Source: Cyanidioschyzon merolae (Eukaryota). Taken from it: 64,000 bases of DNA. The stretch lies in the NCBI GenBank assembly GCA_000091205.1, contig AP006502.2; one strand, 5' to 3'. Made by a program: the position numbers and the translations under genes. Under the pieces are notes generated by a model. The model was not told where the DNA came from, did no database searches, and worked only from the letters and a program-made list of their open reading frames with translations. Positions 11,839-59,816 of this stretch are shown piece after piece (positions within the stretch are counted from its first letter, which is position 1; each line of letters opens with the position of its first letter).

Positions 11839-13485
11839 ATGGCACCACATCGCCATAGCAAACGAGAAACGCTAAAGCACAAGTACAAAGTGCAGCGGAA
11901 AGTGGCGGAGCACAATCGACGAATGCGGCGCCTGGCTCGCAAGCAACGACAAGAAGGTATCATTAAAGGGCAGCGCAAGGCCCAGCGCGAGCTCGGTGTA
12001 CCGAACCTCTACCCCTACAAGAAGCAGTTGCTGGAGCAGGCAGCGCGACGACTGGCCCTGCGATCGACGGTGACGGCAGAAGCGGGCTCCTTGGGCGAGT
12101 CGCCCGTGTCCGCTCCTGCGTTATCCGGTGCGAATGCACTCGGGAAGACTCCGGTGTTCCGCGAAGTTGCGCGCTCGAGGCGATCTTTTGCTGCAGCGCT
12201 TCGTCGTGTCGTGGAGTTATCGGATGTCGTTGTCGAGGTGCTCGACGCCCGGAACCCGCTGGAGAGCCGATCTTCAGCGCTCGAGCTGCTGGTACGTCAC
12301 GAGGGTGCGCGAGCTGCTGGCGGGAAACGGCTGATATTGGTGCTCAGCAAAGCGGACCTGGTTCCACGTGAAGCTCTCCAGGCCTGGCTGTGTCGACTTC
12401 GGGCCGAGTACCCGACATTGGCGATGCATGAAGGCCTCGATCAGACTGGTCAGCACCGGGGCCCGCGGCAGCCAGGTAGCGCAGTACAACCAAAACAGCT
12501 CTCGCAGCTGGTGCAGCTGCTCAAGCTCTATGCGAAACGGCGTGCGGACAAGCAATCATCCAGCAGCACCATCACTGTAGGCATCGTCGGCAAACCGAAT
12601 GTGGGCAAGTCAAGTCTACTGAACGCCCTCTGCCGTGAACAAGGTGCTGTGGCGACTGGCGCCCGTCCGGGTATCACCAAAACACTGCAGGAGGTTCGGC
12701 TTGATAGCAACATCCGGTTGCTGGACTCGCCTGGTGTTGTGCTGGACGATGTGCAGGAAATCGATCCAGCACCCGTGGTGGAGGTGGAGCAGACGAAAGC
12801 CGCGGGCTCACCCGAGCCAGTTGCCAATGCGACATCTGGCTCTCGAGACGAAAGTCGAATGGCGCTCGCTGGATTTCTCGCTGTTGAGGAGCTCAGCGAT
12901 CCAGTGGCTGCGGCTCGCCTGGTACTCGAACGATGTCAGTATAACGCGGATGGAGCGCTCTCTCTACTCTACGAAATGCCTGCATTTTCGATGTGCGATA
13001 TGGTTGCTGCAAACGAAGCTACTCGAGAGGAATCTTTTGCCACGCAGTTCTTGGCACTGTTTGCAAAAAGGCGTGGGTTGTTACGCAAAGCGGGAGTTCT
13101 TGATCTCGAAGCAGCAGCTCGAGTCCTGGTGCAAGATTGGGCAACTGGCAGAATCCCATACTATACGTTGCCGAAGCACGTTGGACTGCCTTCGTCGCAG
13201 CAGCTTGGAGCCCAGATCGTTTCAAACTGGGATAACGCTTTTGATCTTGATGTCTGCGAGCCTTCACCGAGCGCAGAAGAAGTTGTGATGGATGAGAATC
13301 CTGCTACCGACGCTGCCCCGCTATCGGTCGCTGATGTAGACGATGAAGTGGTGTTCCATGTCTGGAAGCATAAAACTCGGAGAGAAAGGCAAACATTTGC
13401 TTTGCCGCTTTCTCCTGGTGCTGCGGTTGAGAACGTCGCAGCTGATGCGGATCTCGAAGACTTTGAATTTTCCACGACATCGTGA
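11839..13485 (+). CDS. Nucleolar GTP-binding protein of the GNL3/nucleostemin/Nug1 family (circularly permuted GTPase)
   Basis: The basic N-terminus MAPHRHSKRETLKHKYKVQRKVAEHNRRMRR matches the GN3L N-terminal domain. The G4/G5 motifs precede G1 (DVVVEVLDARNP...LVLSKADLV... then GIVGKPNVGKSSLLNAL...DSPGVV), which is the circularly permuted GTPase order. ATG start and stop both verified. Confidence 0.8.
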   Translation: MAPHRHSKRETLKHKYKVQRKVAEHNRRMRRLARKQRQEGIIKGQRKAQRELGVPNLYPYKKQLLEQAARRLALRSTVTAEAGSLGESPVSAPALSGANALGKTPVFREVARSRRSFAAALRRVVELSDVVVEVLDARNPLESRSSALELLVRHEGARAAGGKRLILVLSKADLVPREALQAWLCRLRAEYPTLAMHEGLDQTGQHRGPRQPGSAVQPKQLSQLVQLLKLYAKRRADKQSSSSTITVGIVGKPNVGKSSLLNALCREQGAVATGARPGITKTLQEVRLDSNIRLLDSPGVVLDDVQEIDPAPVVEVEQTKAAGSPEPVANATSGSRDESRMALAGFLAVEELSDPVAAARLVLERCQYNADGALSLLYEMPAFSMCDMVAANEATREESFATQFLALFAKRRGLLRKAGVLDLEAAARVLVQDWATGRIPYYTLPKHVGLPSSQQLGAQIVSNWDNAFDLDVCEPSPSAEEVVMDENPATDAAPLSVADVDDEVVFHVWKHKTRRERQTFALPLSPGAAVENVAADADLEDFEFSTTS

Positions 13486-16400
13486 ACCTCGGAGATGAAC
13501 AGGCCGGGCGCTCTTCACACACGAAGCCAGCTCTGTGCGGTGCAGGTCGCTCGCTTGTGAGTGTATCGCATATCTGCGGCACTTTATTTGTGTGTCTTGA
13601 GATCTGTGTGTCTATATGCTAGAGTATCAGCGGGTCGTCAGGCGCGTGTGTGGCTCCTCGAGCATGCGCTTCCCTGATCGCTCGACTCGGGGCCCTGCGG
13701 GCATTCAACATTCTCGACGCATCTGCGAGACGTGTGTCATGGATCCAACCGGCATTGCACCTAGCCGCTGGCAAGGCGCCTCTGAATCACTGGACATACG
13801 TAAGCATCGTGCTCGAGCTGTTGAGCTCTTTTCGAAGGGAATCTACCGACAACATGGCTTGCAAAGTCATCGGGGCGGGACCACACAACAGGGGCTTTGT
13901 TTGGACCCTCTTTTCAAAAACGCAACCAGAGACGGCACTTGGATGCATTCATTCAGCTTTCCGCACACGTAACAGGTTGCAGCTATGCACAAGCGCCTCG
14001 TACGCGACCGGTCATTAGCGAGATACCTGCGTAGAATCGCGGTCTTCGTAGAGAGCATGCGTTCCGTGCGACGCTCCAAAATGACAGCGTATTCTGTCCA
14101 CGATTCTGCCTGCTCGTCATTTGGCTACAGACCGTCGGCTTTGTGAGCGCAAGCTGAAAGCGTTCACGCAATGCGCATGATGCATCATCAATACAACCAG
14201 CCAAGCAAGACGGGATTCCTGACCATGGACTAGATTTCGCGTCAGGGGAGTCTGTCGAAGAAGCAATGCGTGCGAGGAGGACGTGAGCCAATCACGATCA
14301 TCCTCCATCCGCCCGGTCTTTCTCTGGGGTATTGAGTGAATGCTCAATCATTCGGAATAGAAGCCATGACGAAAAGCACCAAGAGACAAACGTGGGGTCA
14401 CTGCAGCGGCGTGCATACCAGCCCAAGCGCTTGCTGGGGCAACCAGTGCTTGCTGAGCGAACGCTGCGTAACGCTCTTAGCGACAGCAGTTTTAGACTCG
14501 CGATCGGCAGTGGCACACTCGGCAGGTCTTTTGGGCGAAGGATCAGGACGCATCCGGGATGCACTACTGCACACCTGCGGTACCAGAGAGGAACGAGGTT
14601 CCCGGACAGACCGTATTCCCGCTAGTGGAGGGTGCCGTACCCGCGCCTCGGCAATGCCTAACGAGGTTGCTGTTCAGGACTTGAATCTCTAGAATGCTTC
14701 CTACAGATGACGAGACTTTGGACTCAGAGCAGCGCACTTGCAAGAACATGTATCAACACGGTAAACGTGTAATTGTTTGTTTTTCGCACAGGTATTCAAA
14801 ACGTGGATTGTATATTATAGAGCGATGAAAGGTCGCGAGATGACTTTATGCTGGCTGGCTGGCTGGCTTCGGAGCAAAACGCCTTTACTTGTCCAGACCA
14901 GACATTGTGCGGACAGCAGACGTATGAGGTACCCCTCTCGTAGTGCGTTCCTTGAACGACTTGCACCGACCACAGCAAGTTTCAAAAGCTATCTACATGA
15001 GCGTCCCGTCTTTCATGTATTCCAGCCCGGATGATATCCATGACGTACCTCCAAAGAAGCCGCTGGATGAGAGGTTTTCGAACGGTTGATACAAATTGCG
15101 GTGAAGCGACACGAGTGAACGAAGAAGATGGCAGGCTACTACTTGTAGCTGCAGCACCTTGAACAGCGCACGATCGATTTCGCACTGCAACGCGAAAGTT
15201 TATTCCACCAGGGGCATATTGCCGTCTCAATGTATGAGACTTTATTCAGTAGACTTGGTAGATTTGTGTATGGATAATTCAAAACGGGGGCAAACTGCTG
15301 TTCATAGAAAAAAAGCAGCGGGGCTGTCGGTACTATTAGCCCTGGCTACGACTCGGTTATGTAGTTACTTATACATCGCCAAGAATTGTCTAATCGTTCA
15401 ACATCGCATGCTGCGGGGAATCACGTTTTGCGACCTATTCGTTTCACGTTCTTCTTCACTGGCCTTAGACGTTGCCGCTTTCCATCACTATAATGTGGTC
15501 ACGGAGTATGCAGATGAGATCGGCAATGAGCAGTGCTACGTGTGAGCGATGGCTCCCGGTTCCAATCGAGTAGGGGGTATGTCTGTCGGTCTCTGTGCTA
15601 CGCCCGATCCAGCGGTTTGGGCGCTGTTTCGAACGCTCACGGCAGTCGCAGTGCACAATGGAACGTCGGAAAAGCAGAATGTCGGAGATGAGGCACGCGA
15701 TGTGACTGGTGGAAATCGCAGAGCTGGTACGCAATGACGGCAGATTTCCCGGGTGTCGGTACTCGTCGTGAATTCCCGGATCATTGAGCCGTGAGCACAT
15801 TCCATCGATCAGAACGAATTTGCGGTGGGTTGCTCGACACTTGCTGGCCTGGCGCCGGATAGAAACACAATTCAAACCAGTTTCTCATTCCAGCGTCTGT
15901 GCAGAATGGACTGCAAGAAACGGGAATAAACGTGTATCCGTAGTCGGGAAGACTGCGGCGCATAGTTTGTTTACGATCAATAAAACGAACGAAATTCCTG
16001 TTGAGTAGGGTGATGCATACCTCGCCCGCACAAGCGTAAGATACTACAATGGCTACGCTTTTGATACAGGCGTCGAGGGGTATCGTGCCAGGCCCCTGCA
16101 TCCCCTTGTCTGTCGGGGCGGTACTGCGATGGGCAGTAGCGTCGGCACCAGCGACAGAACCTATAGCAAGAGTTCATTCTACGTGAGTTTCCGATGTACA
16201 ATACGTTGTTTTGGCTGCAGTGCACCGGTGAGAGCACGCATGTGCCAATGCGGGGTGTCGGACACGTGTCCTTTATCGATCGGTGCAGCGTCTCGCGCGG
16301 TGCACGCATCGCGCTCAGTGCGCGCACCTAGGAGATCAGGCAGGCGTGAGACACGACGCGCATGCCGCCGTTGAAGGGAAACGTAATCGTGATCAGCAGC

Positions 16401-16511
16401 GTCTAGCTCTCGTGTTAAAGTTGTATTTTCGTTGACTTTATGGGCAAGTATAGTTTTCAGTTCAATTGTGTTTGAAAACTCAAACAAGTGTATTCTAGTG
16501 TTTTGTCGCAG

Positions 16512-16519
16512 TATATAAG
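16512..16519 (+). promoter_or_regulatory. TATA box (tatataag) about 50 bp upstream of the element ATG
   Basis: gcagTATATAAGaggagcg is conserved in copy D (41455-41462) and degenerate in copies A and B. Confidence 0.4.
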
Positions 16520-16570
16520 AGGAGCGTTCAAAGAGGGTTCTTTTTCAAAAAAAACTAAACAAGGAAAGTT

Positions 16571-18911
16571 ATGAAAAAGCAAGTCGACGATCCTGGAGGC
16601 CCAGTGTCGCCGGCTGCCAGAAAGAAAACAAAACACAGTGCCGAGTCCAGAAGAAGAGGAGAAGAAAAAGAAGCAAAAGGAGGAGGCTCTACGTCGAGTG
16701 CTGCAAGAAAGACGAATGTACGACGAGAAGGTGGTGAAAGCTGGTCTTCTTGGATATATCAAGGATCCGTACAGGGAAAATTTGCGAGACGCTATCAGAA
16801 AACGTGTCGACTCGTACTCCAAGAGTACTGTCAAGGCGTCGTCAGGACTGATGCACTCGGCGAGGGAGATGTATCGCGACGTGACGCACATGCAAACAGT
16901 CGAGGTCCCAGACGAGTTGTTCGACACGACCTTTATTCGATACTTGATGCTCGGTACAGGGGAGATGCGAAGGGAAAATGAGCGAGTGCACGCCCTCTGC
17001 CAAAAATACTCCTTCTACAGCTTCGAGGGCACTCGATACAGGGTTGACTCGTGTATTTACGAATACGGAGCGATAAAGTACCCCACGAACCTGAATAAAC
17101 ATTTGACCGTGAACCTCGAACGTTTCATGATACGCGCCGTGTTTGCACTCTACCCGGGCATCTCTCGCAAAGCGATATGGATCATCATCGATAGCATCAA
17201 AAACGATAGTAAGAATGAACAGGTGATCGAATTTGTTCACGAGAAGACATTATGCAGGAAAACGAATGAAGCTTCTGTAATCCGTGCGGCTATACAAGAG
17301 CACCGTGCAGCACTGGGGCTTGCGAGTCCAGCAGAAAAGATATCAGAGTTGAAAAAAGATAAGAAAAGATACCATCGCCTCGTCCTGCGCTATTTCGTGT
17401 TTTTGGACCGAGAGCTCGAACGCAAGGCGGAAATGAAGCTGAGTGAAGAGACAAATGAATATTGGGAGAGACGGAAGCCTGTCCTAATAGGGCAGCGCTT
17501 CAACGTGGCTCCAATGTCCAATATCAAGTCACATTTCCTGACGATCGATTCCGGCGTCGTTCATGGCATCATGAGGGAGATCAGTCCCGAGTTCAATGTT
17601 AACAGGGAGGAGTTCTCCGGCGAAAACCGGGAGACGCACTGGAAGAATATCTTCGATTCCAAACGTCTGAGAGTGAGCAAGCAAAAGTTGTTCACTGAAA
17701 TGATTGAAACCGATGGAGTGGCCTTGTGTATACACTATCGGCGGTTGAAGAGAGATCGGCCAGTCCCTCCCTCGGCCGCGCCCGTGACGAAGGATGAAGA
17801 AAAGGAGGAGGCCGGTCCTGCGACACAGGAGGTAGACGATAACGACCTTGTCGTTGGCGCGGCGGAGCATGAAGATGAGAAGGAGGCGGATCCTGTGATG
17901 CAGGAGGTGGAGGATAACGGCCTTATCGTTGGCGCGGTGAAGCTTGATGAAAACAAAAAGGCAGATCCTGCCACGCAGAGAGTGCAAGATAATGACTTTG
18001 TCGTTGGCGCGGACCCTGGGAATACGAATATCATCACCATTGCAGCACCCAAGCGTGCGGAAGATGGTGCTGATGGTAACTTGCGTCAGAAAAACATGCG
18101 TCTTTTGAGGTTCTCGAGAGCGAGATACTATCGAGAATCGGGAATGATGAATGCAAGGAAGAAAATCGAGACATGGAATGCAGGAATGAAGGAGCACCTG
18201 GACGCTATGAGCGAGGTGACGAGCCGAGGAGCGGACTTTGAAGCTTTTCGGGAATTCATGGAACTTCGTGTTGCGCATTGGGATGCACTGTGGGAGCAGT
18301 ATACCAAGCCTCGGTTGGCTCGTCTGCTTATGAATCTATACGGGTAGAGGCAGCGGGCATTTGCGAACTTTTTCAATCAGTTGAGCGCCCTCAAAGAGGA
18401 TCAAAGTCAGAGGCTGGTAGTAGCATACGGGGCAGGGCGCTGGGCGCCCAAGAAAGGCACTACGCCAGCTCCATCGACGAGAACGTACAAGGAGTGTGCG
18501 CGGCGTTTTGTTAAAATTCCTGCAGATGAGTTTCGAACATCGTATACACATCATGAACTGGGATGTACACTTCAGACGGTGGAGATAGAAAAGTGCCAAC
18601 GGAGTCCTGAGGAAATAGCAAAGTACGGACCGCTGACGGAAGAGCAAATGGAAAGAAGGGCGAAAGTGCGAGGGCTACTCGCATTAGTAAGTACAACCAG
18701 TGATGGAAAGAAACGGATGGAGTCTGTGAATCGAGATTGTAACGCCGCTATCGATATAAGGAAATGTGCGGTGCTAGAGAAAAGACCTCCAGAATGGACA
18801 AGAGAGAACTTTATTGGACAACCTCTCAAAGTCGAACTATATGAGAAGAAGTTGGAAGCAGTAGTGGGTGGCCGGTCGCAAAAGTCTGGGAGGCGTCTAC
18901 ACCTCGGATGA
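16571..18911 (+). pseudogene. Fanzor/TnpB-like RuvC nuclease gene (copy C), nearly intact: one 2-bp poly-A frameshift and one in-frame TAG
   Basis: MKKQVDDPGGPVSPAARKK at 16571 shifts frame in the run aaagaaaacaaaac, where copy D has two more A. From 16638 to 18911 there is a single reading frame apart from the TAG at 18345-18347 (NLYG*RQRAF). RuvC-I is [19 protein letters not shown]. After it comes IPADEFRTSYTHHELGCTLQ...EKC, an E..TS motif plus a Cys/His cluster. RuvC-III is RMESVNRDCNAAIDIRKC. The N-terminus is Lys-rich and looks like a nuclear localisation signal. Confidence 0.6.
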
Positions 18912-18920
18912 AAGCGTTAT

Positions 18921-18985
18921 GTCTAGGGCGGGTTTCTCGCCACTAGTGTGCACGGTCGGCATCGTTCGACTGCGTTTAGGTTCTC
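18921..18985 (+). ncRNA. Candidate omega-RNA-like scaffold, or other conserved 3' end structure, of copy C
   Basis: The 3' tail begins right after the ORF stop and is conserved in all four copies (gtctagggcg-gg...cgcc-ac.a.tgt.cacc/ggt.ggc..cgtt.g). A GC hairpin, GGCG-ggtttct-CGCC, is present here; copy D has a lengthened stem, GGCGCG-ggtca-CGCGCC. Confidence 0.3.
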
Positions 18986-21575: not shown

Positions 21576-22897
21576 ACGGGGTACGGCTGCGGCATCCTCC
21601 GCATCTGGGGCAGCGTAGGGCGCGCGGTGAGCGGCCTGCGCGCGATCCGCCCATCGATGATGCTGGTGCCCCAGCGCTGTCTGTGTGCTGTTTCCGACCT
21701 ATGGATCGCAATGGAGAAACTGAAACTCATGAGACATGAATGTATATTACAGTCATGCGTGCGCAAGCTCGGCGCTGACCAGCGACGCTGCCGGTGCTGC
21801 GCAGCGTCCCCTGGAGCGCGCGAAAGACGCTCTGTCTTCGAGTTACATCGGCATGAACAGTGTAGGTGGTATTGTGGATGCAGTGCGGCAGGTGCTCGGT
21901 GCACAGTGGAACGCATGAAACGACCAGTAGATTCGCGGGGCAGTATTGGTCATGGAACGTGAAGGTGGAGTGCAGCATGCAGGGCGCTTTCCCGGATGCA
22001 GGTATTCATTACGCAAGCCGGGACCCGTGGTCCACGGAAACCTTTTGTTTAACGAGAGAAATTGACGGTGCAAACCAGCACGCGATCCTCGTCTGCTTTG
22101 CCTCGCAAAATGGGAGTAACGACATGCGGGTATATCAACAACACGTCGCTATCTTGCTGCTACGTTCCGGATATTCATTCGTTTGCTTAACTTACCACCA
22201 TTCGATCATCGAAATTCGCTTGAACAACAACACGTCGCTATCTTGCTGCCACGTGTTTCCCGCTTCGCATATTACAACGCACCGTATGGCAGGCGACGAC
22301 GCTGTGCCGCTTATGCAGTCAGTACCGCAAGGATGCCCAGACCTGCGGCAGGCACACAACGCGCATGACGCGCTAAACTTGCAACTAGAGCATCTTCCAG
22401 CGGCTAATGAATGCCCCAAAGAACAGGTCCAGGGAACTCGTGGCGGCCGCGGTTGCATGTGCACATGCTGTAGTAGCGCGGAGGATTGCGGTGCGCTCGG
22501 TGCTGGTTGCCTGCGCACCCTGCCACCAGTGCAGCCACCACAACTTGTCCATGGCATCTGTGCGAGAACACGTAGCACGCGGCCGCCTTGCCTATGTGAA
22601 ACCGTTCATTGTTTACGGCCAAAGTTTCGAAGAAAGATGGTGAACCGAGACTCGCTGAAGCACATCGTTTCTTTCTCCAGACCAGTACGGAGACGATGTC
22701 GCGACGTTCATGAGCTGAACAACTCCAGCAGTACCCAGGATGCTCCGTGGCACCCTTGGAAACGCGGGCCATTGCCGCTGACGTTGCGAAGACGCCAGGG
22801 TCCGCATCCGCACGCCAGCGAGCAGCGAACTCTAGACGTGCTATTTTCAAGCAGGCGCTGGCTACAAGAGACCGCATCCCGGTACGGGCGCTTCGCT

Positions 22898-26254: not shown

Positions 26255-29200
26255 GGTATCCGTACGAACACTTCCAGCGCGTGTACGACGTTTCTAGTTT
26301 CGCGCGTGCCGCGCTAGCGACGCGACAGCGCCGGATGCGCCTACCGATCGAACTGCATGTGTGAGGCGCGCACGGATCATCACACGCCGCGAGCGCTCGC
26401 GAAGCGCAGCATGCGCGCGCGCAACGCAGTGTCCATCTTAGATCTGAAACAAAAATGGACATTGACCCAGACGGAGGCACAGGCGCGGCATCCGTGGTAG
26501 TGTGCTTTCGTGCAGCGCCTGGCGAGCGCATCTTCGATGTTGTTGTTGCTGTAGTTGTTTGGACATAACTATGGCGCACAGAACAGAGATCCTCGATTGC
26601 GCTCATCGATAGGGGAAAGTGTCCATCATGATTCACGCTAGCTGCAGGTTCCACGATCGCTGGTCGACTGCGGAGATCCTGGCTATTGTCCAGGTCCTAT
26701 CGTGCATCGAATGCCTGCCTTGAGCGTTCGTGATAGCGCGTATAGCGCCGGTGCGGAAGTACAGCACGGAGGCGTCGATGCGTGTGCGTGGCGCCGGCAG
26801 CCGCGCGCACCCACACGAGCAGCGTCCGGTTGGATGCATCGCTCTGCGGACTCTGGCATGCCATGGGCGCTTGCGCATGAATCGAGCGCTCTGCACTGGG
26901 GTTTGAGGCGTTCAAGGCAGGCGCTCGACGCTCGCTGGAACATGCGATATGAGCGGTATCTCTGAGGGGACCGATGGGTAGCGGCTCGTGGAGCCTGCAG
27001 GTATGGTGCGGAATGATGGACGCTATCCTGCATGTCGATATGGGCCATGCAATCGCGCGGATGCGTGGTGAATGTCAAGCTTCTGTCAAATACAAAAAGT
27101 TGGGCAAGATGCATGCTCCCGAGGTGTGCGCAAAAGCGGCAATAACGCGCTCCCACGACGCCGGGATCCAGGTCTTGTGTCGATGTAATTGAGTGCATCA
27201 ACGAGATGAGCGGCCCGCTTGCGCAGTTCACAGCTGTGTTCCCAATTGGAATCGATCGCGCGGGATGCATGAAGCGCCGCCTCGAGTCGTGAAGAAAGAG
27301 CATGTACCTCAGGGATTTCGTACCTGGGGCGACTCGCCTGATGCGAACGCCGGCCTCGAATCCTCGGCACATGCGGTTTTGGTACTGCATCCATGTGAAA
27401 GTAGTGGCTGCTGTTCGCTTGCGTCTGATATCGCATATTGCAGGGATACGCGCGCCGTAATGATGCATGTACAGTTCAGATGGAGGGAACTTTTAAAAGC
27501 TTGCTTTGGCACTGTCTCACTGAGTCGACACCCGCAAAGTCTTGGCGAGGCGGTTCCATGTCCCTGCGGCAGCAGCACCAGCAGCACTTGCCGAATGGAC
27601 GCTCGACAATCTTATGATCATCAGAGGGATTGATCGTGTCCTCCACAGTGAAAGTTGAATCGGGCATTTCTAAAGAAACTGTGGTCTTTATCCCTGGTAA
27701 TTGGCAATATTTACGAAGCCGACAGCATCCAATGAGATGCACAACCCCTACCCCGCACGAAAAAACACTGCTTTACGTCCAGATGTTCACAGTGGCGTCC
27801 GGGAACGTGCATGCAGGGTAAGCACTTGGAGGATCCGATGAGGAATGATGGCTCCACAGTTACAAGCTGATAACAATTGCGGAACCGGGGATCCCTCGTT
27901 CGTCCCAACGGCCTTATACGATGTAATAATGCTGGGTAGGCACGAGCGTCTCGAACTGCGCTCGACACTGGAGCTCGACCCAGCCGAGTGCGATGTCAAT
28001 GTTGCTCGTTGGAGATCATCGCCAGATCACAAGTGGACTACCCGTTTGGACATGGTGGTGAACGAACACGCACAACGCTGGCTCGTAAGCGTAAACGAAC
28101 GTGAACTGAGGCATCCGCGACGAGTGCTTCCTCCAATCCTTAGGGCCAAATTGATTCTTTGTAACAACAGGGACACTTTTTCTGAACTGGTCGCTCGCGA
28201 AATTTATCCTCAGTGGGTATACCCAGTTCCGGATACCTAAAGGAATAGAGGATACATCCGATATGCGTTGAATCGTGCGACTCCGGCCGCATCAAGATAC
28301 GGCAGGCTAACGCGCTGACGAAGACATCTCGAGCGCAACGCTACCCTGTGCAGAGAGGCAACTCTGCGAAGATGATTGCTTTCTTTGGTTCGCAAGGATT
28401 TTCAACTGATGCGGGTGTAGATCCTTGGAGTTCAAATTCACCAGTCGAGTAGCACGCGTCAAGCGCCTCAAATCCATCAAGTTCGACGTGAATCGGGCTC
28501 CAGGGCGAGCTCGACGGCTTTAGTGTACAAAGCGTCCTCTAGAAACCGGCGACGCGTGCAGTGATTCCACTCTGTAATTGAATGACATGCATGTACTGTT
28601 GTTCGAACCTAGGGTACAAGTACCGCTCAGGATGAGATTCGGCGGAATCACCACCCGCTCTGAGTGCTCGGGAGTTTTCTGTATCCCCTGCACTGAGGTA
28701 CATCGAGGATCCTGGGCCGGATCAAGCACACTCTCTCTGGACCAAGTGTCGGAACGCGTCCTTGATTCACATCGAGCATACCTTCTCGCAGTAATCGAGG
28801 AAGCGACAAGCCCCGAGGGCGTTTCGCTTGGAAGAGCATTCATTACGCCGCCTCGGCTCAGTAGCGCGACCTCTGAGCTACGCATTCTGAAAATTGCAAC
28901 GCCATGCCGCGAATCCACGTAGCGGTTCGATGCCCTGACTAACAATGTCATCGTTCGGTGTCAGCGACCTGATGGTGCCGGTGAAAACGGAACGCCGTCG
29001 TCTGCACACCATGGTTGTCGTTGTCGTTGTTGTTGGCATCCATTGAAGCAGTGCAGTTTTCTGCGGCTTTTTCCGAGTATGCATCAGATTCGCTCAAACC
29101 GGGATATAAGAGGGCACCGCCAAAGCGCTTCAGCCCGAGGCACGTACGCATGTCTCCAGAAATTGCAAAAAGCTTCTCTGGGATGGAGAGCATTACCCGG

Positions 29201-40492: not shown

Positions 40493-41514
40493 GAATTCTT
40501 CTTACTGTAGGGCTAGCGCTAGTAGGCGCTGTACGCTGTCGGAGGTCATTTGTTCGACGTCTCAGACAGGCGAACGACGGCGCGTAGCTCCAGGCGTTGC
40601 CCCGGGAACCTTTACGGACGAGGTCGTTTACGAGGCTCAGCGTCCGAAGACCATAAAACGAAAGTATCATCGGAACTTGGCTCGAAAGGAATCTGGGCAG
40701 AGTGCTGACGCTGTATACGATTTTTGAATGACGACAACAACAGCGACAACCGGCCTCATGGCATGGTCAGAAATCGGGACTGTCGAGCAGTGGGACGCAC
40801 GAAAACCGCACAATTCAAACCAGTTTCTCATTCCAGCGTCTGTGCAGAATGGACTGCAAGAAACGGGAATAAACGTGCATCCGTAGTCGGGAAGACTGCG
40901 GCGCATAGTTTGTTTACGATCAATAAAACGAACGAAATTCCTGTTGAGTAGGGTGATGCATACCTCGCCCGCACAAGCGTAAGATACTACAATGGCTACG
41001 CTTTTGATACAGGCGTCGAGGGGTATCGTGCCAGGCCCCTGCATCCCCTTGTCTGTCAGGGCGGTACTGCGATGGGCAGTAGCGTCGGCACCAGCGACAG
41101 AACCTATAGCAAGAGTTCATTCTACGTGAGTTTCCGATGTACAATACGTTGTTTTGGCTGCAGTGCACCGGTGAGAGCACGCATGTGCCAATGCGGGGTG
41201 TCGGACACGTGTCCTTCATCGATCGGTGCAGCGTCTCGCGCGGTGCACGCATCGCGCTCAGTGCGCGCACCTAGGAGATCAGGCAGGCGTGAGACACGAC
41301 GCGCATGCCGCCGTTGAAGGGAAACGTAATCGTAATCCGTAGCGTCTAGCTCTCGTGTAAAAGTTGTATTTTCATTGACTTCATGGGCAAGTGTAGTTTT
41401 CAGTTCAATTGTGTTTGAAAACTCAAACAAGTGTATTCTAGTGTTTTGTCGCAGTATATAAGAGGAGCGTTCAAAGAGGGTTCTTTTTCAAAAAAAAACT
41501 AAACAAGGAAAGTT

Positions 41515-43801
41515 ATGAAAAAGCAAGTCGACGATCCAGGAGGCCCAGTGTCGCCGGCTGCCAGAAAGAAAAAACAAAACACAGTGCCGAGTCCAGAAGA
41601 AGAGGAGAAGAAAAAGAAGCAAAAGGAGGAGGCTCTACGTCGAGTGCTGCAAGAAAGACAACTGTACGACGAGATGGTTGTGAAAGCTGGTCTTCTTGGA
41701 TATATCAAGGATCCCTACAGGGAAAAGTTCCGAGGCGCTATCAGAAAACGTGTCGATTCGTACTCCAAGAGTACTGTCAAGGCGTCGTCAGGACTGATGC
41801 ACTCGGCGAGGGAGATGTATCGCGACGTGACGTACATGGAAACAGTCGAGGTCCCAGACGAGTTGTTCGACACGACCTTTATTCGATACTTGATGCTCGG
41901 TACCGGGGAGATGCGAAGGGAAAATGAGCGAGTGCACGCCCTCTGCCAAAAATACTCCTTCTACAGCTTCGAGGGTACTCGAAACAAGGGTGACTCGTGC
42001 ATTTACGAATACGGAGCGATAAAGTACCCCACGAACCTGAATAAACATTTGACCGTGAACCTCGAACGTTTCATGATACGCGCCGTGTTTGCACTCTACC
42101 CGGGCATCTCTCGCAAAGCGATATGGATCATCATCGATAGCATCAAAAACGATAGTAAGAATGAACAGGAGATCGAACTTGTTCACGAGAAGACATCATG
42201 CAGGAAAACGAATGAAGCTTCTGTAATCCGTGCGGCTATACAAGAGCACCGTGCAGCACTGGGGCTGGCGAGTCCAGCAGAAAAGATATCAGAGTTGAAA
42301 AAAGATAAGAAAAGATACGATCGCCCTGTCCTGCGCTATTCCATATTCCTGAACGGAGAACTGGAACGCAGGGCCGATATGGAGCACGGTGTGGAAGCAA
42401 ATGCAGTGCCGGAGAAACGGGAAGCTGCGCTTCTGGCGAGGCATTTCAACGTCGTTCGGTTACGCGAGATCAAGTCCCATTTGTGACGATCGACTCCACA
42501 GTCTTTCAGGACATCATGAAGGAGATCTGTCCGGATTTCGATGTCAGCAGGGAGGTGTTCTCCGGTGAAAACCGGGAGACGTTTGAAATCGAAGATATTC
42601 TGCTTCGATTTCAAACGCCTCAAAGTGAGCAAGCAAAAGCTATCCGCGGGGATGATCGAAACCGATGGCGTAGCCATGTGTGTTGACTATCGGCGGTTGA
42701 AAAGCGATCGTCCTGGCCCGTCTTCGATATTGCCCGTGACGAAGCATGAAGATGAGAAGGAGGCGGGTCCTGCGACGCAGGAGGTGGAGGATAACGGCTT
42801 TATCGTTGGCGCGGTGAAGCATGATGAAAACAAGAAGGCGGATCCTGCCACGCAGAAAGCGCAGGATAACGACTTTGTCGTTGGCGCGGACCCTGGGAAC
42901 ACGAATATCATAGCCATCGCAGTACCGAAGCGTGCGGAATATGGTCACGACGGTAACTTGCGCCAGAAGGACATGCGTCTGTCGAGATTCTCGACAGCGA
43001 GATACCATTGAGAATCCAGTATAATGAATGTGAGGAAGAAAATCGAGACATGGAATCCAGGAATGAAAGAGCATCTGGAAGCGATGAGCGAGGTGACGAG
43101 TCGCGGAGCGGACTGTAAAGCTTTTCGGAATTTCATGGAAGTTCGTGTTGCGCATTGGGATGCACTGTGGGAGGAGTATACAAAGCCCTGGTGGGATCGT
43201 CTACGTATTAATCTATACTGTCGGAAGCAAGGTGCATTCAAGAAAATTTTCGATGAGTTCAGCGCCTTGAAGGAGGATGAAAGTCAGAGGCTCGCATTAG
43301 CGTACGGAGCAGGGCGCTGGGCTCCGAAAAAAGGGTGTACACCAGCTCCAACTACAAGAACATACAAGGAGTGCGCAAGGCGTTTCGCTACGATACCTGC
43401 AGATGAGTTCCGAACATCGTATACACACCATGGACTGGGGTGCACATTTCAAAAGGTCGAGATGGGAAAGTGTTAACGGAGCCCTGAAGATATCAAAAAA
43501 GTACGGACCGCTGACAGAAGAGCAAATGGAAAGAAAAGCGAATGTTCGAGGGCTATTCGCATTAGTAAGTACAACCAATGGCAAGAAACTTATGCGATTC
43601 CTGTATCGCGACTTTGAGGCCGCTATCAATATAAGGGCATGTGCGGTGCTGGAGCATAGACCTCCAGAGTTGACACGAGAGAATTTTATGGGGCAACCTG
43701 TCAAAGTGGGACTATATGAGAAAACTATGAAACCAGTAGCAGGTGGCCGGTCGAGAGAAACTGGGAGGCGTCTGCAGCTCAGTTGGCGACTTCGTGTCTA
43801 G
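41515..43801 (+). pseudogene. Fanzor/TnpB-like nuclease pseudogene (copy D): intact N-terminus, two in-frame stops and one frameshift
   Basis: MKKQVDDPGGPVSPAARKKKQNTVPSPEEEEKKKKQ... runs continuously to a TGA at 42484-42486. The second segment (42541-43011) holds RuvC-I, ...[25 protein letters not shown], and ends at the stop at 43009-43011. A frameshift near 43440 follows, then ...IPADEFRTSYTHHGLGC.... The final piece (43403-43801) has ...RFLYRDFEAAINIRACAV, which is RuvC-III. Confidence 0.6.
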
Positions 43802-43875
43802 GGCGCGGGTCACGCGCCACTACTGTACACCGGTGGCGTCGTTCGACTCTCGAACGGCGTTTGGTACGTGAGGAA
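43796..43875 (+). ncRNA. Candidate omega-RNA-like scaffold, or other conserved 3' structure, of copy D
   Basis: gtctagGGCGCGggtcaCGCGCCactactgtacaccggtggcgtcgttcgactc... A 6-bp GC stem replaces the 4-bp stem of copy C, which is consistent with a conserved hairpin. Confidence 0.3.
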
Positions 43876-44917: not shown

Positions 44918-45869
44918 ATGAAGCGTTTTCCTGTGCAACAACGGGATGCTGAGGATCCTATCGAAGAGATCGCAGCCAACCGCTCACAAGCGTTTGCGTA
45001 AACGCAGTCCTTGCGCCATATCGGTCGCCGAGGTTGATCCAGCGTTTACGTACAGCGTTCTGTCCATTCATTTGCTTTCGATCAAACGATGTAGTTGCAT
45101 ATGAATCACATGTGACATGCAGTTGGGAGAAGCGGAATGGCACACGGGCTCCCGTGTATCGTACTAGGATGCAAACGCATGTGCAATGTGTGTGTGTGTG
45201 TCTGTGTAAAAGGGAAGTCTTGAATCGGCTGCAATCCACGGATGAATTCACACCACGCTTTGAGAGTTTTCTGTCAAGATCTGGGTTTCCCTGACCATTT
45301 GTGAGCTCTCGTGATGGAACAAAGCTGTTTTTGGATATAGAACGTGTTTATCGAGGACATTTTCCATGGATATCAGGTGATATTCAGAACAGGGGATTCT
45401 ACAATGCCTGTACCAGCATAACTTGTTTGTTTTAGGTGTATTATCGCTGGTATTCGATAAATTAAATGAATTTATCGTGTAGATTGGAGAAAGGTCGCGT
45501 AAATACTTGATGATGTGACTGGTAGTTTGCGAACAACGGCCTTGCATGTACGCATCAGTCACACCACATTCAGCAGGTGTGTGAATCACGCGCCTCGTAG
45601 ACCTTCCAATGAACGTCGTGTACCCGAAACAGAAGTTATCAAACGATATCCACGCGATTGTCTCGTATTCAATGTATTCCCGTATAGAATCCCACTGAGA
45701 AATTCGATTAGTGAAGCCACCGGACGTGAACTATTCGCACTGTTGACATGGACGGCGTTGAATAGACATGGATGGATAAAGGAGAAAGCACGCTTGGATG
45801 CCAAACCGTCTCGTGTTCAAAAGTGCACTGTCGATTTCGCAGTCAACCGATGACGCCGCTTTCAGGTTG

Positions 45870-47500
45870 GAAAGATGCTCGTTTCACTCGATGAGATTTC
45901 AGTCGGGAGACATGGCAGACTTGTATGTAGACATTGAAAGAGAGGTAAACCGCTGTTCGTAAGGAGGAGACGAGCGAGCATGCCGATATCATCCGTTCGC
46001 GGGCGATTCAATCGTACGATCGCCTAAACAGGTAACACAATACGCAGGACCTAACAGCACCTCATCCTTCGTCGAGGCACTCGTCGGGTTTCCCGCTTCC
46101 TATGATGTTCCGTGCTGCTTTCAGGAAACGCTGGTTTCCATCACTCAGAATCTGCCAAGGAGTATGCAACTGAGGCTGGCATTGAGCCGCTCTTCGTGCC
46201 CGCCTATTCTTTCTGGCTCACTCCGATTGAGGGCGTTCCCTCTGTTCCCGAACGCCATTGTTACGTTAACGGATCATTAGACGGGTCACTCGCTTCTACG
46301 ACACCGTTCTTTGAGGAATCGTTCTCTGCACTCAACAATCCTGAGCCGCTGTGTTGCTTTTCTGCTCGTTGGCGGGATGCGGTGGAGGCGCGCGCTTCGG
46401 TCTGTGGGTGTTCGCGCTACGGAAAACGCCATGAAAAGGCACCTGAGACAGCACAGATCCATGGAGACATAGAAGGAGCGAGTTCCGGAGCCACCGTCTA
46501 CCCAGTGCCTCTGGAATCCGACGAGAAAGCGTACATAGCGTACAGCGACGATACCCATGACTCCCCGCCATGTCAAGGACACGGCGATGGAAGAGCTGGT
46601 CTCCGCGGGCAAGTACGCAGCATTCGAACAACTCTGCGAAGGGCAATCAGGAACGCGCCCAGGTTTTCTTGCCTACAGGGATAGGCTGAAGGAAATGTAC
46701 ACGGGCGACAGACGCTGATGGAATATCAATCAGCACGCACTTTGTGAAGCCGGGACCTCTGTCGCGACATTGGACGCATGCCCGAGCCCTCACAGTAGAG
46801 GAAGCGAAGCGAACGCTTTGTGGCGGGCGTGGATCCCGCGTCGAAGAACATCACATTCATCGCCGTATCGCTAGATATAGCGGACGCAACCAAAGACCTG
46901 ACCTGAAACCAGGTGAAGCCGTTTAACTTTCCCACTACGCGATTTCATTGGGATTCGGGTACGGTGGAAGTCCGGAGGTATCCGAACATCTGGAACGACA
47001 AGGTCGGAACCGATCCCGATGCACCGAGCACCGTACGGAGCAGAGGCGAATGCTTCGTGCGCTTCATTCAGGAAGTACGCGAGTGTCGAAATGAACCATA
47101 TGGGCGGTTGCTGGCAGGATAACCTGGGATCACGCTGAACTCGGCAACGGTATCGGTAGAACGTAGACACGACTCGCGCATTCGCCACTTCCCTCAACGG
47201 GCCGGAAACCCAGGTGATCTCAAAGTCGTGTCGTTTGGTGATACAAGTCAATGGCCTTAGACGTGATGCAATGCCCAGAAGCCCGCACTCCCGGTCAAAC
47301 GGCCAGACCGAACAACGAGTCCAGGAATCGAGTATCTGCGAGACCCATCGATGCGTTCAGCACGACATGTGTACGCATCACGAGCATGCGGGCCCGCTGA
47401 ATCTGGTAGAAAGAAGAGCGCGACACATAGACGGATGCACGAGAAGGTGCACAGTGAGGTGACTGAGCGTCAAATGGCGAGGCGGTTGCAGGTGGGAAAC
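45870..47500 (+). mobile_element. Tc1/mariner/IS630-like DDE transposon remnant, repeat copy 1
   Basis: The high-identity core 45953-47499 matches 62454-64000. The ORF 46112-46684 begins ...SGNAGFHHSESAKEYATEAGIEPLFVPAYSFWLTPIEG. This matches the DNAxxH ... LPPYSPxLNPIE C-terminal motif carrying the final acidic residue of DDE transposases; the first Asp is replaced by Gly. The N-terminal two thirds of a transposase are absent. Confidence 0.5.
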
Positions 47501-48060
47501 GTGCTATGGTGTGATTCCAAAAGGCATTCATGTGCGCTGGGGCACGCCCCGCATTGAGCACTGAACGTGTCGAACGGCAACCGATGATGACCCGCGCTTC
47601 CGGAGCGTCCAGCTGCTTTGTATGGCGCGAATGTTCAAGCGAATCGTTTCATAGCTCGTGTAGGCACTGTGGAAAATGCGGAGCACGTTCGAGAGCGTAA
47701 AATTAGGGTGCCGGAGAGAAGGCACTGGATTCTCGCCTGGATCCAGGCAGTCGTGTAGACCGGTTCAGCAATCCATCAAGGCTGGGTCACCTTGTTTAGA
47801 GATAAACCAGGGCGGATTTCCCTTTGGGAGACTGGTGAAACAACAAGGGATACGATTCCTCGACATTGCAGGGTATACATGAAGAAACATTTTCATTTTT
47901 GCATGCACTGCGCTCTTTATGGGGCACAAATCCGAATCCATATGAGGTTTCATGTTGAATGATCACCGAACCCTAACATGCCACATGTAAGCTTCCCGCA
48001 AACTCTTTCAGGATAAAGTTCTCATAGAGGCTCGCTGCATCGCGAGCCTCGGAGAGGGAC

Positions 48061-48084
48061 CACCACCACCACCACCACCACCAC
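48061..48084. repeat. (CAC)8 microsatellite immediately upstream of an ATG
   Basis: Reads caccaccaccaccaccaccaccac, one base out of frame with the ATG at 48086. Confidence 0.8.
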
Positions 48085-48085
48085 C

Positions 48086-48589
48086 ATGTTTTGGTATTCC
48101 TGCGGAGAGCGACTGCGGACATCACTCGCGCGGCCGAGCGCTCGTCGTTTGTACGCGCCCTTAGACCAGTTCACGGGTTTCCGCTGGTCAAAGATGACGA
48201 TTCGTAACCACCGTTTCCCTTTCGAAGGTCGTAGTGCGTCTCACTATTACACGGGGGACAGTCGTGTGTCACGTACAGGTGCGAGCGCGCTGCACACTGC
48301 ACAACCGCTGCGCGGGTTCGACGCAGGGACACTGCGGCCTGCAGCGGGTCAGCGGTACCCGACCGCAAGCATGCGCGCTCCCTGTGCTGGCTACCAGCTG
48401 CCACCGGACTATGTGATTGTCGCGATTGCAGGAGCTTTGCTCGCTGGAGCGGGGTTCATGCTTCGGAGTCTTGGTGATGTGATCGGAGAAGAGTCGCGAC
48501 TTCCGTCAGCGAGCAGTGCGAAGACGCGCAGGGAGCTGTACGGAAGCCGGCGTTATTTGCAGAAAAAACCGCCTCGAGACACAAAATGA
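48086..48589 (+). CDS. Hypothetical small protein with one predicted TM helix
   Basis: 167-codon ORF with an ATG start. One hydrophobic segment DYVIVAIAGALLAGAGFMLRSL. No recognisable family; it could be non-coding. Confidence 0.15.
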   Translation: MFWYSCGERLRTSLARPSARRLYAPLDQFTGFRWSKMTIRNHRFPFEGRSASHYYTGDSRVSRTGASALHTAQPLRGFDAGTLRPAAGQRYPTASMRAPCAGYQLPPDYVIVAIAGALLAGAGFMLRSLGDVIGEESRLPSASSAKTRRELYGSRRYLQKKPPRDTK

Positions 48590-55410: not shown

Positions 55411-57798
55411 GCAGGTAAATTCGCACATTTTGACAATTCCAAGGGACTGGAGCATCGCCTTCGTATATCGATGCACATGTATCCCAGATTTCAAAGTCTT
55501 GCTTCATGGCGGGCATTTTTCGTTGCGGTAGTTCACGCTTCCGTCGAAAGCGCCGTATCCGAGGCGTCTACGTCGAACAACGCAAAGTGTCGCGGCACAC
55601 ACTGCACTGCAAAGCTGCATTATCACGCGAATCCGAGTTTTTTTTTCTGTTGCCAGAACGTTTCCATTCACCAGGGATTCCCGCTTGCGCGATGGATATT
55701 AGCATTCGGCATCGCAGCAGACGCTCCCGCGCTTGACTCCAGGCTCGATCACATATACCTTATCTCGCAGATCGAAGTCGTTTTTCACGCTCTACCGTGC
55801 GCCAAGTGCCTGACGTGAGCGTCTGCGCCAACAACGGTAGCGCCGGTGCGGTCACAGCATGGCGACAACACCGCATGGTCATTCCAAGGAGCGCTTCGGC
55901 TCGAGGCGTGCCTCACCTGACCCAGCGTCTTGGCTCATTAGCGATTTGTGCTCGCAACCAAGTGCCATATCGCTCGCGTAGCGGCAGTTTCGCCCCACCC
56001 GTATCAGTTTACAATGGAACATGAAAGTGCTTGCTCCGTTCCTGGCAGGCAACTGTTTTCGTACTCTGTTTAGAAATGCGGCTTCAGGATGCCAAGTGCA
56101 GCAACAAGGGCTTTCGGATTCATGGAGAGTTTCGGGATTACCGCTCGTTTCTTCCGAATGGATCCTTCGATGCTCTCCCGGTAGCATTCGTGACATCACC
56201 GGAATCGAGATGATCCGCGAGGCAATCGAACAGGGATTTGCAAAACCTAACCATATTACGATCCAATTCATATGTACGCGTTTGCACGCGTCTACTTTCC
56301 TAACATGTAGCATACTCCAATCAATGGTGCTTGGTGTTTTCGATCTATCTATTGCGAGGCAACTCGTGGAGGTAGCCATTCACGTGGCTGGTTTGACGAG
56401 GAAACCTACTCGACGCCGTTTCCCCGGCGACGTTTTCTCCCAGCTCATGCCCAAAGTTCGCTGAACTTGGAAGTTCAGATACTCGATTCCTTTCGAAAGA
56501 CAAATGCTTTTCTTTTTGAAGTCATCGACGGAGCGTCATTCAACAGTAGCGTGATACCTGCCAAGGGGTGCGCTCCCAGAGGCTTACGTCTCTCCTGCTT
56601 GTATGGAAAAAGGTCTTGGACTCGGACTCGAGTCATCGCAGCGAACTGTCCCAGTCGAGCATAAGTCAGCGCTTTGCGGGAAGCGAGCGTAGACAGATCG
56701 GCATTTCTGGACCAGTTCTCCGGACTGGATTTTCCCTCTGGCACTCGTTTCACCCTGGGCAACTTCGCGTTTCACTCATTTTCTATCGAACCGGCCGCAT
56801 GCGTCTGCGTGTGTAGCGAACAGTGTACGCTCGCGGCGGATCAACCAGAAGGAGCTCGGCATCGTGAGGTACGGCAACTGACCCGGAAATCGAGCTTGGC
56901 ATCGAGGATAACCCTTTGTATCTGTCAAGGGCATGTACTGAGCAATCAAGCGAGCGTTTACGCGGCAAAGGGCAATAAACAAAAGACGAGGTGTCGTGGA
57001 CGTATTCGACCGCCTGACCACATCCAAGTGTCACCGCTGCAAATGGCGCCCCTGCGTTGCATATACTGAAGAGACAAATGGCGATCGACGCGTGCATCGC
57101 CAATATCGTCTGTTCAGGAAATGCGTAGAAAAATGCCGAAAGCCGGTAAGTGAGACCCTCACCACTGCCATCAACACCCTTCGACTGCATGCAACGGATT
57201 CGGAAGCAAACAAGAGACCAGCGTGTTCCAAGCTCCGAGACCTGTAATAGGAAAAGGAAGCAGTCACTGAAAAAGCTCCCATTGGCTGGAATTCATAGAA
57301 GTGCACTGAGAAGCCAACGTTGGCACGTGCACCCGAGTTACAGAGAACCCGATCGACTTTATCCTGAATTGGATGTAGCGGAAACGCGTCCCAAACTTCA
57401 GCAACAAGCGTCCTGACCTCCGTTCAGCAGACGCTTCATGACACACAGTCGTGCGCAAGATACGCACGTCGGCATACGCATGGGCCTTATGAGCATCATC
57501 CCACACGGAACGACAGTTGCTAGACATGTGTCCTCGCGATGATCCACAATGATGCTCAGGTTGGCGTATATAGTGCGTCTGTTTGCTTCATGAACTGGTG
57601 CGCTTCGGAAATCGGTGTCGTTTGCCATCGCATGAATGCAGTTCTCCGCTTAATGAATCGTGACTCGACAAGCCGAATTTCATGTCGAGCGGTTATTCTC
57701 AAAGCGCCCTTGGCTGGTACCAGCGACCGGTGTCCGTAAAATGCTCGAGTCCGCATGAGCGTTTCCCTGCAGGTCTGAATACACCTGTGGTGCGGGTA

Positions 57799-58620: not shown

Positions 58621-59816
58621 GTCAGCCCCAGTCACTACGAAGAGACAACCAGTCACGGCGCTTTCGAACCTGCGCCTCTACCCTGTAAGTCTACCACGCG
58701 TTGCAGTGCAACAGCGTCAAACGTCAATGTCTTATGAAGCAACGTCGCCGAACGCTGCCGGTCAGGCGGTACGCGTCACTGCGAAAAGTGAATCCTCATG
58801 TGAGGCGCACCTGCTCCGTGCATCTACGGGGTCGTTTCTATGAAGCAGTTTTTCGGACGAGAATGTTCATTGGGGATGCCGTCGACTAGGTCATTAGGGT
58901 CCTGCCACCAAAGGCAGTGTATATTGTCCACTCTGGTGTCAGGAAGAAAGCTGCACCTTTTTACAGACCGCCGCTTCTAGGTGGACCTACCATTCTTGAG
59001 CGGCGTTTGCGGATATAGAACGCAAAGCCGGCACCGGACCGCATGCTGACTGAACCAAGAAGCTCGTTTATGGACACCAAAGACACACGTTCTACCTCCC
59101 GGGTGGTAGGTCCCGCGAACCGAATGAGCACACAGGTCTAGCGTGTCGTGCACCTGCTCACTTGTTGGTATCGAGCCAAGGCCTGCATCACGAACTGGCG
59201 ACGCAGTTCATGCATGGTGGCGAAGGTAGCGTTCAGTGCCCGGATATTCGTGCTACTTGCCGGATTCGCTCCACGATTCGCACCACACACTGGCAAGCCT
59301 GTACATGTCGAGCGTCGGAGCAGAAACGAACCACGAGACCTGACCTCGCCTCGAGTCGACGTACTCCATGGCATGGTAACGCAGTGCCAACTCCGTGTTG
59401 TGTCCGTACCGATCATACAGGTGCTGCGGCGGGTGCTCGCAGCAGGCACTCGACGCTCCGCGAAAACCTACGAACGGACTAGTACCGCCCGGGAAAAGGA
59501 CGTCCAGCGGCTAATCGAACGCGGATCTCGGGTCTGGAAAGAAGGACGCTTTCCCGAATGCCGGTATACACAGAGTCATCAATCTAGGATCCTTCGTCCG
59601 TGTAAACGTGATGTCCTTGGAAACAGGTTACCAGGTCTGACTGCCTGCAAGCACTCCAGAGTACTAGCGGCACTGAGCGGCAACTGGCGTGGAGGCTTCG
59701 GATGCGCTTCCCGGGGTGCATCGCTCGATTCACCGATCGCTGGTAAATGGATCACCCTGACTTGTGCGTAACTGGAACCTTCTAAATATCATTATTGGGA
59801 GGCAAGCGTTCCCCTT

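Follow-up and report, generated by a model that had tools for sequence, protein, structure and literature searches.

The closest described system to the repeats analyzed here is CMe-1A, a Fanzor1 family of the red alga Cyanidioschyzon merolae published by Bao and Jurka (2013, Mobile DNA 4:12, PMC3627910). About 150 copies were reported, each about 80% identical to a consensus of 3,169 bp. The family was described as encoding a single-exon protein of 734 aa and as having no terminal inverted repeats (TIRs), with the target-site duplications (TSDs) undetermined and the class unknown. The 5′ 635 bp of CMe-1A showed 95% identity with a separate repeat, TE-N2_CMe. Red-algal Fanzors were covered by surveys in 2023. 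Here we analyzed a stretch of 64,000 nucleotides (GCA_000091205.1, contig AP006502.2; hereafter the window), which is nuclear DNA of C. merolae 10D, a hot-spring red alga, and found in it four mutually homologous segments of about 2.4–3.1 kb each (copies A to D). These repeats are very probably old, inactivated copies of the Fanzor1-encoding family CMe-1. A preliminary description of the same DNA had proposed a four-copy family of elements, and the four copies proved to be real both by comparison with each other and by mapping to the published consensus. For the mapping we used blastn against the 3,169-bp CMe-1A consensus from Additional file 2 of Bao and Jurka (2013), with the following result.

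178–2593, minus strand: copy A, a 5′-truncated CMe-1 pseudogene; consensus 735–3169, 85% identity
2603–5775, plus strand: copy B; consensus 1–3089 corresponds to 2603–5704, 82% identity; the last ~70 bp (5705–5775) align poorly
2603–3250, plus strand: TE-N2_CMe-like 5′ module of copy B; consensus 1–647; the core follows
15866–16309, plus strand: 5′ module of copy C, 444 bp, here called leader-2; 99.3% identical to 40809–41252
16310–18956, plus strand: core of copy C; consensus 648–3137 corresponds to 16310–18953, 85–88% identity
Parts of the copy C core, plus strand: 5′ untranslated leader 16310–16570; coding frame from the ATG at 16571 to the stop at 18909–18911; 3′ tail of ~45 nt
40809–43841, plus strand: copy D, with leader-2 at 40809–41252 and the core at 41253–43841; consensus 648–3145 corresponds to 41253–43838, 83–85% identity

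The published consensus aligned to all four window copies with 82–88% DNA identity, and the protein reconstructed from copy C showed 76% identity with the published CMe-1 protein over the full length; therefore the repeats belong to the published CMe-1A family. The novelty implied in the preliminary description does not hold, since the family was published in 2013 as the Fanzor1 element CMe-1A of C. merolae; CMe-1 is already known, and only its relics are present here. Among the window copies, only B is of the published CMe-1A type; C and D form a sister subfamily with a different 5′ module, and A is 5′-truncated. Copies A and B are located head-to-head with 9 bp between them. Their boundary, which had been placed at 2900/2960, is in fact at 2593/2603, and the region 2603–3250 is the 5′ module of copy B and not a part of copy A.

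Each window element carries one open reading frame (ORF) only, and the intact ORF of 750–780 codons that was first ascribed to the family was found in none of the four copies; the consensus ORF has 734 codons. Copy A has lost its ATG and contains five frameshifts and four in-frame stops, copy B contains three frameshifts and five stops, and copy D three frameshifts and two stops. The least damaged is copy C, with a 1-bp insertion near 16624 and an in-frame TAG at 18345–18347. All four window copies are pseudogenes, unable to make the Fanzor1 protein. Pairwise they are 72–83% identical (17–28% different), except for the first ~1.6 kb of copies C and D, and from the consensus they differ by about 15–18%. 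The suggestion that four copies in 64 kb reflect recent activity is not supported, because the copies are this divergent and all of them are disabled. Positions 15866–17450 of copy C and 40809–42400 of copy D are 96–99% identical, and their 3′ halves only ~71–84%; this mosaic between copies lying 25 kb apart suggests gene conversion or partial duplication.

The copy C ORF exceeds 734 codons because a 75-bp unit is present three times just upstream of the first RuvC motif, as detected by Tandem Repeats Finder.

17788–18012, plus strand: 75-bp in-frame tandem repeat of copy C, three units of ~25 aa each

The unit is present once in the consensus, twice in copy D, three times in copy C and four times in P0001, an intact homologue encoded by the metagenome locus L001.

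Seventy-one further loci were fetched from Cyanidiales-containing metagenomes, and about 44 distinct copies were extracted from them. A near-full open frame was found in only one of these ~44 copies (L001, encoding P0001). The 71 loci have unrelated flanks, and the ends of homology are sharp and shared among them. A comparison made to detect orthologous or empty sites gave no match between the sequences flanking the window copies and any of the 72 fetched loci, and an exact look-up of the neighbouring protein Nug1 gave no contig. The Fanzor1 ORF is thus carried by a multi-copy transposable element, with four copies in the window, 71 further loci and ~150 genomic copies according to PMC3627910.

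Instead of being a mobile element, the four copies within 64 kb might belong to a multigene family of the host or result from segmental duplication in this region, which would agree with the 96–99% identity between C and D in their 5′ ~1.6 kb and with the failure to find TIRs or TSDs. However, the window copies are 17–28% different outside the C/D 5′ half, about 150 copies are dispersed (PMC3627910), the 71 metagenome loci have unrelated flanks, none of them orthologous to a flank of a window copy, the sharp 5′ and 3′ ends of homology are common to these unrelated flanks, and nearly all copies are pseudogenes. We consider a host family or duplication highly improbable.

To place the protein, we searched a large protein database, which yielded P0028 as a single distant relative (E = 5.7e-23) besides 27 close ones from hot-spring metagenomes. 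The CMe family and its relatives were combined into an alignment of 42 sequences (A1), which was used as a profile. A single CMe protein searched with phmmer against PDB gave no match, and a profile was therefore needed. The A1 profile matched PpFz1 (9cf0, E = 2.5e-26), SpuFz1 (8gkh, 4.5e-22) and GtFz1 (9cer, 1.7e-13) in PDB, and it picked up 9,274 cluster representatives in a library of 1.84 billion proteins. The AlphaFold2 model of P0001 (pLDDT 80.6, pTM 0.77) contained an RNase H-like split RuvC in a bilobed REC/WED-RuvC/TNB architecture. In a Foldseek search of this model against PDB, the top seven matches were all Fanzor1 (E 1.8e-16 to 1.3e-13, TM(target) 0.48–0.72), followed by weak Cas12 matches with E of 5e-3 or weaker. 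The 75-bp repeat region is predicted to be disordered, with pLDDT below 50 at residues 378–470 of P0001.

The catalytic residues of SpuFz1 are D383, E541 and D606 (Xu et al. 2024, PMC11423790). In the hidden Markov model alignment, the D of iDPGR, the E of dEfrT and the D of nRDlnAA matched residues 777, 935 and 1000 of the SpuFz1 chain, which are D383, E541 and D606 after subtraction of the maltose-binding protein offset of 394. The corresponding residues D484, E656 and D725 (numbering of P0001) are nearly invariant in A1. The RuvC motifs quoted in the preliminary description were all found in copy C, where a further conserved motif lies between the first and the second of them.

18000–18032, plus strand: RuvC-I motif with the catalytic Asp; D484 column, aligns with SpuFz1 D383
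18414–18443, plus strand: LVVAYGAGRW, the canonical RuvC-II position with Gly; A621, Y622 and G623 of P0001 nearly invariant
18525–18566, plus strand: DEFRTSYTHHELGC, the relocated catalytic Glu and then the degenerate first half of the zinc ribbon; E656 column, aligns with SpuFz1 E541
18729–18761, plus strand: NRDCNAAIDIR, RuvC-III with the catalytic Asp; D725 column, aligns with SpuFz1 D606

The rearranged Fanzor active site has Gly or Pro at the canonical RuvC-II Glu position (PMC10530073). The AYG of the CMe-1 family is located at this canonical site, about 33 residues upstream of the DEF Glu, and thus fits the rearranged site. As read from the aligned sequences, the predicted CMe-1 triad consists of the Asp in GADPG, the relocated Glu in DEFRTS and the Asp in NRDxNAA, with Gly (AYG) at the canonical Glu site. 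Intact members of the family encode a single-exon protein of ~734 aa with a basic N-terminal stretch resembling a nuclear localization signal (NLS), REC, WED and a split RuvC. The first 45 residues of the consensus contain GKKRKT and then KTKKQKREARRQR, and copy D has ARKKKQ; the likeness to an NLS is at motif level only.

The Pfam TnpB models (OrfB_IS605 and OrfB_Zn_ribbon) gave no match for the window ORFs or for the reconstructed copy C protein, and P0001 reached only E = 0.23. P0028 and other relatives of CMe-1, including relatives of P0028, matched PF07282 (Cas12f1-like TNB, formerly OrfB_Zn_ribbon) with a best E of 1.6e-9. Since CMe-1 itself has no match to the Pfam TnpB models and the relatives do, the homology with TnpB is transitive only. 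The identification of a TnpB/Fanzor-like split-RuvC nuclease on a repeated element in a eukaryotic nuclear genome was borne out by the profile, the fold and the aligned D/E/D. As to the profile search, its Fanzor side stood, with PpFz1, SpuFz1 and GtFz1 matched by the A1 profile, but the Pfam TnpB models remained unmatched. Two outcomes had been named that would speak against the identification, namely no TnpB or Fanzor profile match and a predicted fold without an RNase H-like RuvC. Neither was seen, and the AlphaFold2 model matched SpuFz1, PpFz1 and GtFz1 by Foldseek.

Conservation is higher at the first two codon positions than at the third, most clearly in the RuvC half (0.85–0.91 against 0.69–0.79). 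The pairwise ratio of nonsynonymous to synonymous divergence (dN/dS) was 0.41 overall and 0.24 in the RuvC/TNB half, with dS about 0.4–0.5. From dN/dS and the codon-position bias together, much of the divergence of the CMe-1 family accrued under protein-level purifying selection, which also speaks against recent activity. This quantifies the remark in PMC3627910 on the “long-lasting coding capability” of CMe-1A.

All copies share homology from consensus ~645 onward, regardless of the upstream sequence, and the 635 bp of TE-N2_CMe are present only in a minority of copies, including window copy B. Leader-2 was found in full length at no fewer than seven distinct metagenome loci (at least 7), with the same sharp start and 77–81% identity, and it showed no match to consensus 1–647 (TE-N2_CMe). 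Because the core homology begins at ~645 and a second 5′ module exists, the CMe-1 family can be described as a core of ~2.5 kb to which different 5′ modules are joined. The published consensus itself seems to be composed of this 2.5-kb core and the separate 635-bp repeat.

The head-to-head layout of copies A and B was observed again in the metagenome loci L053/L056 (~2075/2099), where the flanks are unrelated to those at 2593/2603 of the window. At both sites, consensus position 1 of the TE-N2-bearing copy lies 9–24 bp from consensus ~660–735 of the opposite core.

TE-N2_CMe also occurs apart from the cores. In the metagenome loci, its fragments often lie within ~40–120 bp of a CMe-1 core, on one or the other side of it and in both orientations (for example L014, L016/17, L020, L023, L031, L033). 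By blastn, five old intergenic fragments were detected in the window, with 67–77% identity to the initial ~290 bp of the published consensus, which belong to TE-N2_CMe.

21887–22048, minus strand: old TE-N2_CMe-related fragment; consensus 6–166, 77% identity
26613–26771, plus strand: TE-N2_CMe-like fragment
26912–27088, minus strand: TE-N2_CMe-like fragment
55651–55940, plus strand: TE-N2_CMe-like fragment
59349–59615, minus strand: TE-N2_CMe-like fragment

The 3′ end of homology is sharp. The last ~25 nt fold to a hairpin in ~80% of copies, with a mean of -8.1 kcal/mol and z = -2.5 against shuffles, and coding sequence taken as control gave about -1 kcal/mol. Two sequence versions of it were observed, AACGUUUUUC-UUUU-GAAAGGCGUU and CGUCGUUCGA-CUU-UCGAACGGCG, which pair in different registers and have G-U pairs on the sense strand only. 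The hairpin is intact in copy D (CGTCGTTCGACTCTCGAACGGCG at about 43817–43839) and decayed in copy C. A hairpin at the 5′ end was statistically weak (z = -0.47).

Just past the published 3′ end, the bases show a bias although the insertions compared are unrelated; TT is frequent, with (T/C)GG/T or GATG after it, and GTT(T/C)G(G)T is also common there. For example, window positions 43840–43846 read TTTGGTA, and several copies without TT have GTGGTG instead. The bias might reflect a preference for certain target sites, or these bases may still belong to the element as its actual end.

Several results weigh against the assignment of the repeats to an RNA-guided Fanzor1 family. The first group concerns the zinc finger. 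A CCCC zinc finger is common to SpuFz1 and ISDra2 TnpB (Saito et al. 2023, PMC10432273), and it belongs to the Fanzor1 signature of PMC3627910, in which CMe-1 was classed as Fanzor1. In the A1 alignment, the four CCCC columns are His, Leu, Leu and Ser in every CMe-1 sequence, and 14–22 aa are inserted in the zinc-ribbon (TNB) domain. As the CCCC is absent across the family, it is not certain that even the intact members are catalytically competent. In the second group, TIRs and TSDs were not found around copies C and D, in agreement with PMC3627910, and no transposase was found in the elements.

The third group concerns a possible omega-RNA. RNAalifold on the last ~245 nt of 43 copies gave 0 pairs and no consensus structure. 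A scan for stacked-pair helices did not separate the strands, with 64 candidates for the sense and 58 for the opposite one. Third-codon positions, synonymous sites near the ORF end, the 3′ tail and the leader evolved at about the neutral rate with no excess conservation, and Rfam gave no match in the whole window. No omega-RNA was found in this way, although all these tests are of low power because most copies are dead; of RNA structures, the 3′-terminal hairpin is the only one supported. Finally, the literature searched contained no report of nuclease activity of the C. merolae CMe-1 protein. The definition of an omega-RNA by covariation was dropped, as the helix scan was alike on the sense and antisense strands.

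The state of the zinc ribbon varies among the relatives. PF07282 was matched by 24 of the 42 A1 members and by no CMe member; P0028 retains a canonical CxxC...CxxxxC ribbon, and the relatives P0072–P0085 are degenerate at the same Cys columns as CMe-1. Since other relatives are degenerate there as well, loss of the zinc finger is a trait of the clade and not a sign of inactivation. The Zn-finger-like insertion with a Cys/His cluster that was first described is not supported, the columns being His, Leu, Leu and Ser with no Pfam TNB or OrfB_Zn_ribbon match; the cluster is a zinc-ribbon remnant, not a recognizable finger. In the wider clade, proteins with PF26935 (DUF8286) tend to have degenerate zinc-ribbon Cys, and those with an intact CxxC...CxxC are flagged PF07282. 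DUF8286 may be a subgroup of Fanzor1 not yet annotated as such.

From the same observations, CMe-1 could be considered an exapted or catalytically altered Fanzor derivative, which lost the zinc ribbon and acts as an RNA- or DNA-binding factor in some other role of the element life cycle, like the domesticated TnpB-derived regulators, and not as an RNA-guided nuclease. The replacement of all four zinc-ribbon Cys in every family member together with the 14–22 aa insertion there, the absence of the PF07282 match from CMe members when 24 other A1 members have it, and the lack of an omega-RNA signal would fit such a change, and purifying selection shows that some function persists. However, the strongest constraint is on the RuvC half (dN/dS 0.24), the catalytic D, E and D hardly vary among the family members and their relatives, the Cys columns are degenerate in several other relatives too, and the multi-copy, mostly pseudogenized distribution is that of a transposon instead of a host gene. 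Exaptation therefore appears unlikely to us.

Another possibility concerns the mobility only. The ~2.5-kb core might move as a hairpin-ended, TIR-less single-strand element, like IS200/IS605 or Helitrons, with a transposase supplied in trans, and the 5′ modules would be neighbours or captured sequence. Such a unit would account for the common homology starting at consensus ~645 whatever lies upstream, for the 3′ hairpin in ~80% of copies with its two versions and sense-only G-U pairs, and for the lack of TIRs and TSDs; Chlamydomonas Fanzor1 elements were found inside Helitrons (PMC3627910). But neither the window nor the fetched loci showed a HUH or Rep transposase, the 5′ hairpin is weak (z = -0.47), and the 3′ hairpin is equally explicable as an RNA 3′-end or omega-RNA feature. 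Moreover, the copies with leader-2 and those with TE-N2 begin sharply at a 5′ end of their own that several loci share, which indicates that the longer units were also amplified as wholes. We regard single-strand mobility of the core as doubtful.

A bolder combination might be speculated, in which intact CMe-1 proteins are active RNA-guided nucleases without a CCCC finger, the ~2.5-kb hairpin-ended core swaps 5′ modules and moves by an IS200/IS605- or Helitron-like single-strand route with a trans factor, and the sense 3′ hairpin marks the junction of omega-RNA scaffold and guide. We hold this combination to be quite improbable.

Returning to the assignment to CMe-1 as a Fanzor1 family, a mechanism can be proposed by analogy with the characterized members. 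Like SpuFz1, GtFz1 and PpFz1 (PMC10432273, PMC11423790), an intact CMe-1 protein would bind an omega-RNA encoded by the element and would make RNA-guided double-strand cuts dependent on a target-adjacent motif. At sites that lack the element and are cut, the element might be copied back by homologous repair, as proposed for TnpB, and intact CMe-1 members would in this way probably promote the persistence of their element. The window copies are relics, of which C and D were probably homogenized in part by gene conversion.

The elements are located among host genes. The flanking ORFs are intronless eukaryotic housekeeping genes, including a cullin, eIF2B, a Nug1/GNL3-type GTPase and a ClpX-like AAA protein; the ORF at 11839–13482 is Nug1, an exact match to C. 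merolae 10D XP_005539105.1. A kinetoplastid or an oomycete had also been considered as the host, and this match decided for C. merolae. Neither a Y1 TnpA nor a serine-recombinase TnpA was found beside the elements, and the neighbouring ORFs are host genes. Two long ORFs beside copy B, at 5786–8041 (plus strand, 751 aa) and 8529–11351 (minus strand, 940 aa), had no Pfam match at E<=0.001.

The window contains a second repeat unrelated to CMe-1, with direct copies at 45884–47499 and 62385–64000 (97% identity, at least 1.6 kb), the second of which is cut by the window end. The ORF at 46112–46684 in this repeat contains a ~45-aa remnant of a DDE_3 (Tc1/mariner/IS630-type) transposase, with a Pfam E of 1.4e-6 that is right at the threshold. 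No TIRs of this repeat were found within 45500–48500. It is a different, younger-looking transposon relic.

The Fanzor1 element was recognized correctly from raw sequence. What the analysis adds to the published family is small: the lack of the zinc finger, an estimate of the selection, a 5′ module of a second type, the hairpin at the 3′ end and the likely composition of the published consensus from two parts. Of modest residual value to Fanzor specialists might be the absence of the CCCC finger from a family under long-term purifying selection on its RuvC half, the composite consensus, the second 5′ module and the sense-strand hairpin. The additions could guide the search for an omega-RNA and for the transposition mechanism, and also the choice of a zinc-finger-less hot-spring nuclease for testing.

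Compared with the published CMe-1A, the repeats in the window are from the same species, likewise have a single-exon ORF and no TIRs, and agree with the published family in their ~80% identity to the consensus. The differences are in the structure of the element. Copies C and D and at least seven metagenome loci have the 444-bp 5′ module instead of the TE-N2_CMe-like 635 bp, and most copies are homologous only from consensus ~645. Copies C and D and P0001 have 2–4 units of the 75-bp in-frame repeat, and the stem of the 3′ hairpin takes in 2 nt (TT) past the published consensus end.

Compared with SpuFz1, GtFz1 and PpFz1, the CMe-1 protein shares the predicted bilobed fold, the aligned D/E/D, the rearranged Glu with Gly at the canonical site and the basic N-terminus, although the identity is only 12–15%. 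Unlike these three, it has a disordered repeat insertion between WED and RuvC-I and no CCCC zinc finger, and no transposase or TIRs are associated with it.

Compared with TnpB of IS200/IS605 and IS607, the order of the split RuvC is the same (D, then E with [TS][TS], then RD with NAA), and the CMe-1 element likewise has a terminal hairpin and lacks TIRs and TSDs. The CMe-1 protein differs from bacterial TnpB in being about twice the size, in its large N-terminal REC extension and in its eukaryotic nuclear host.

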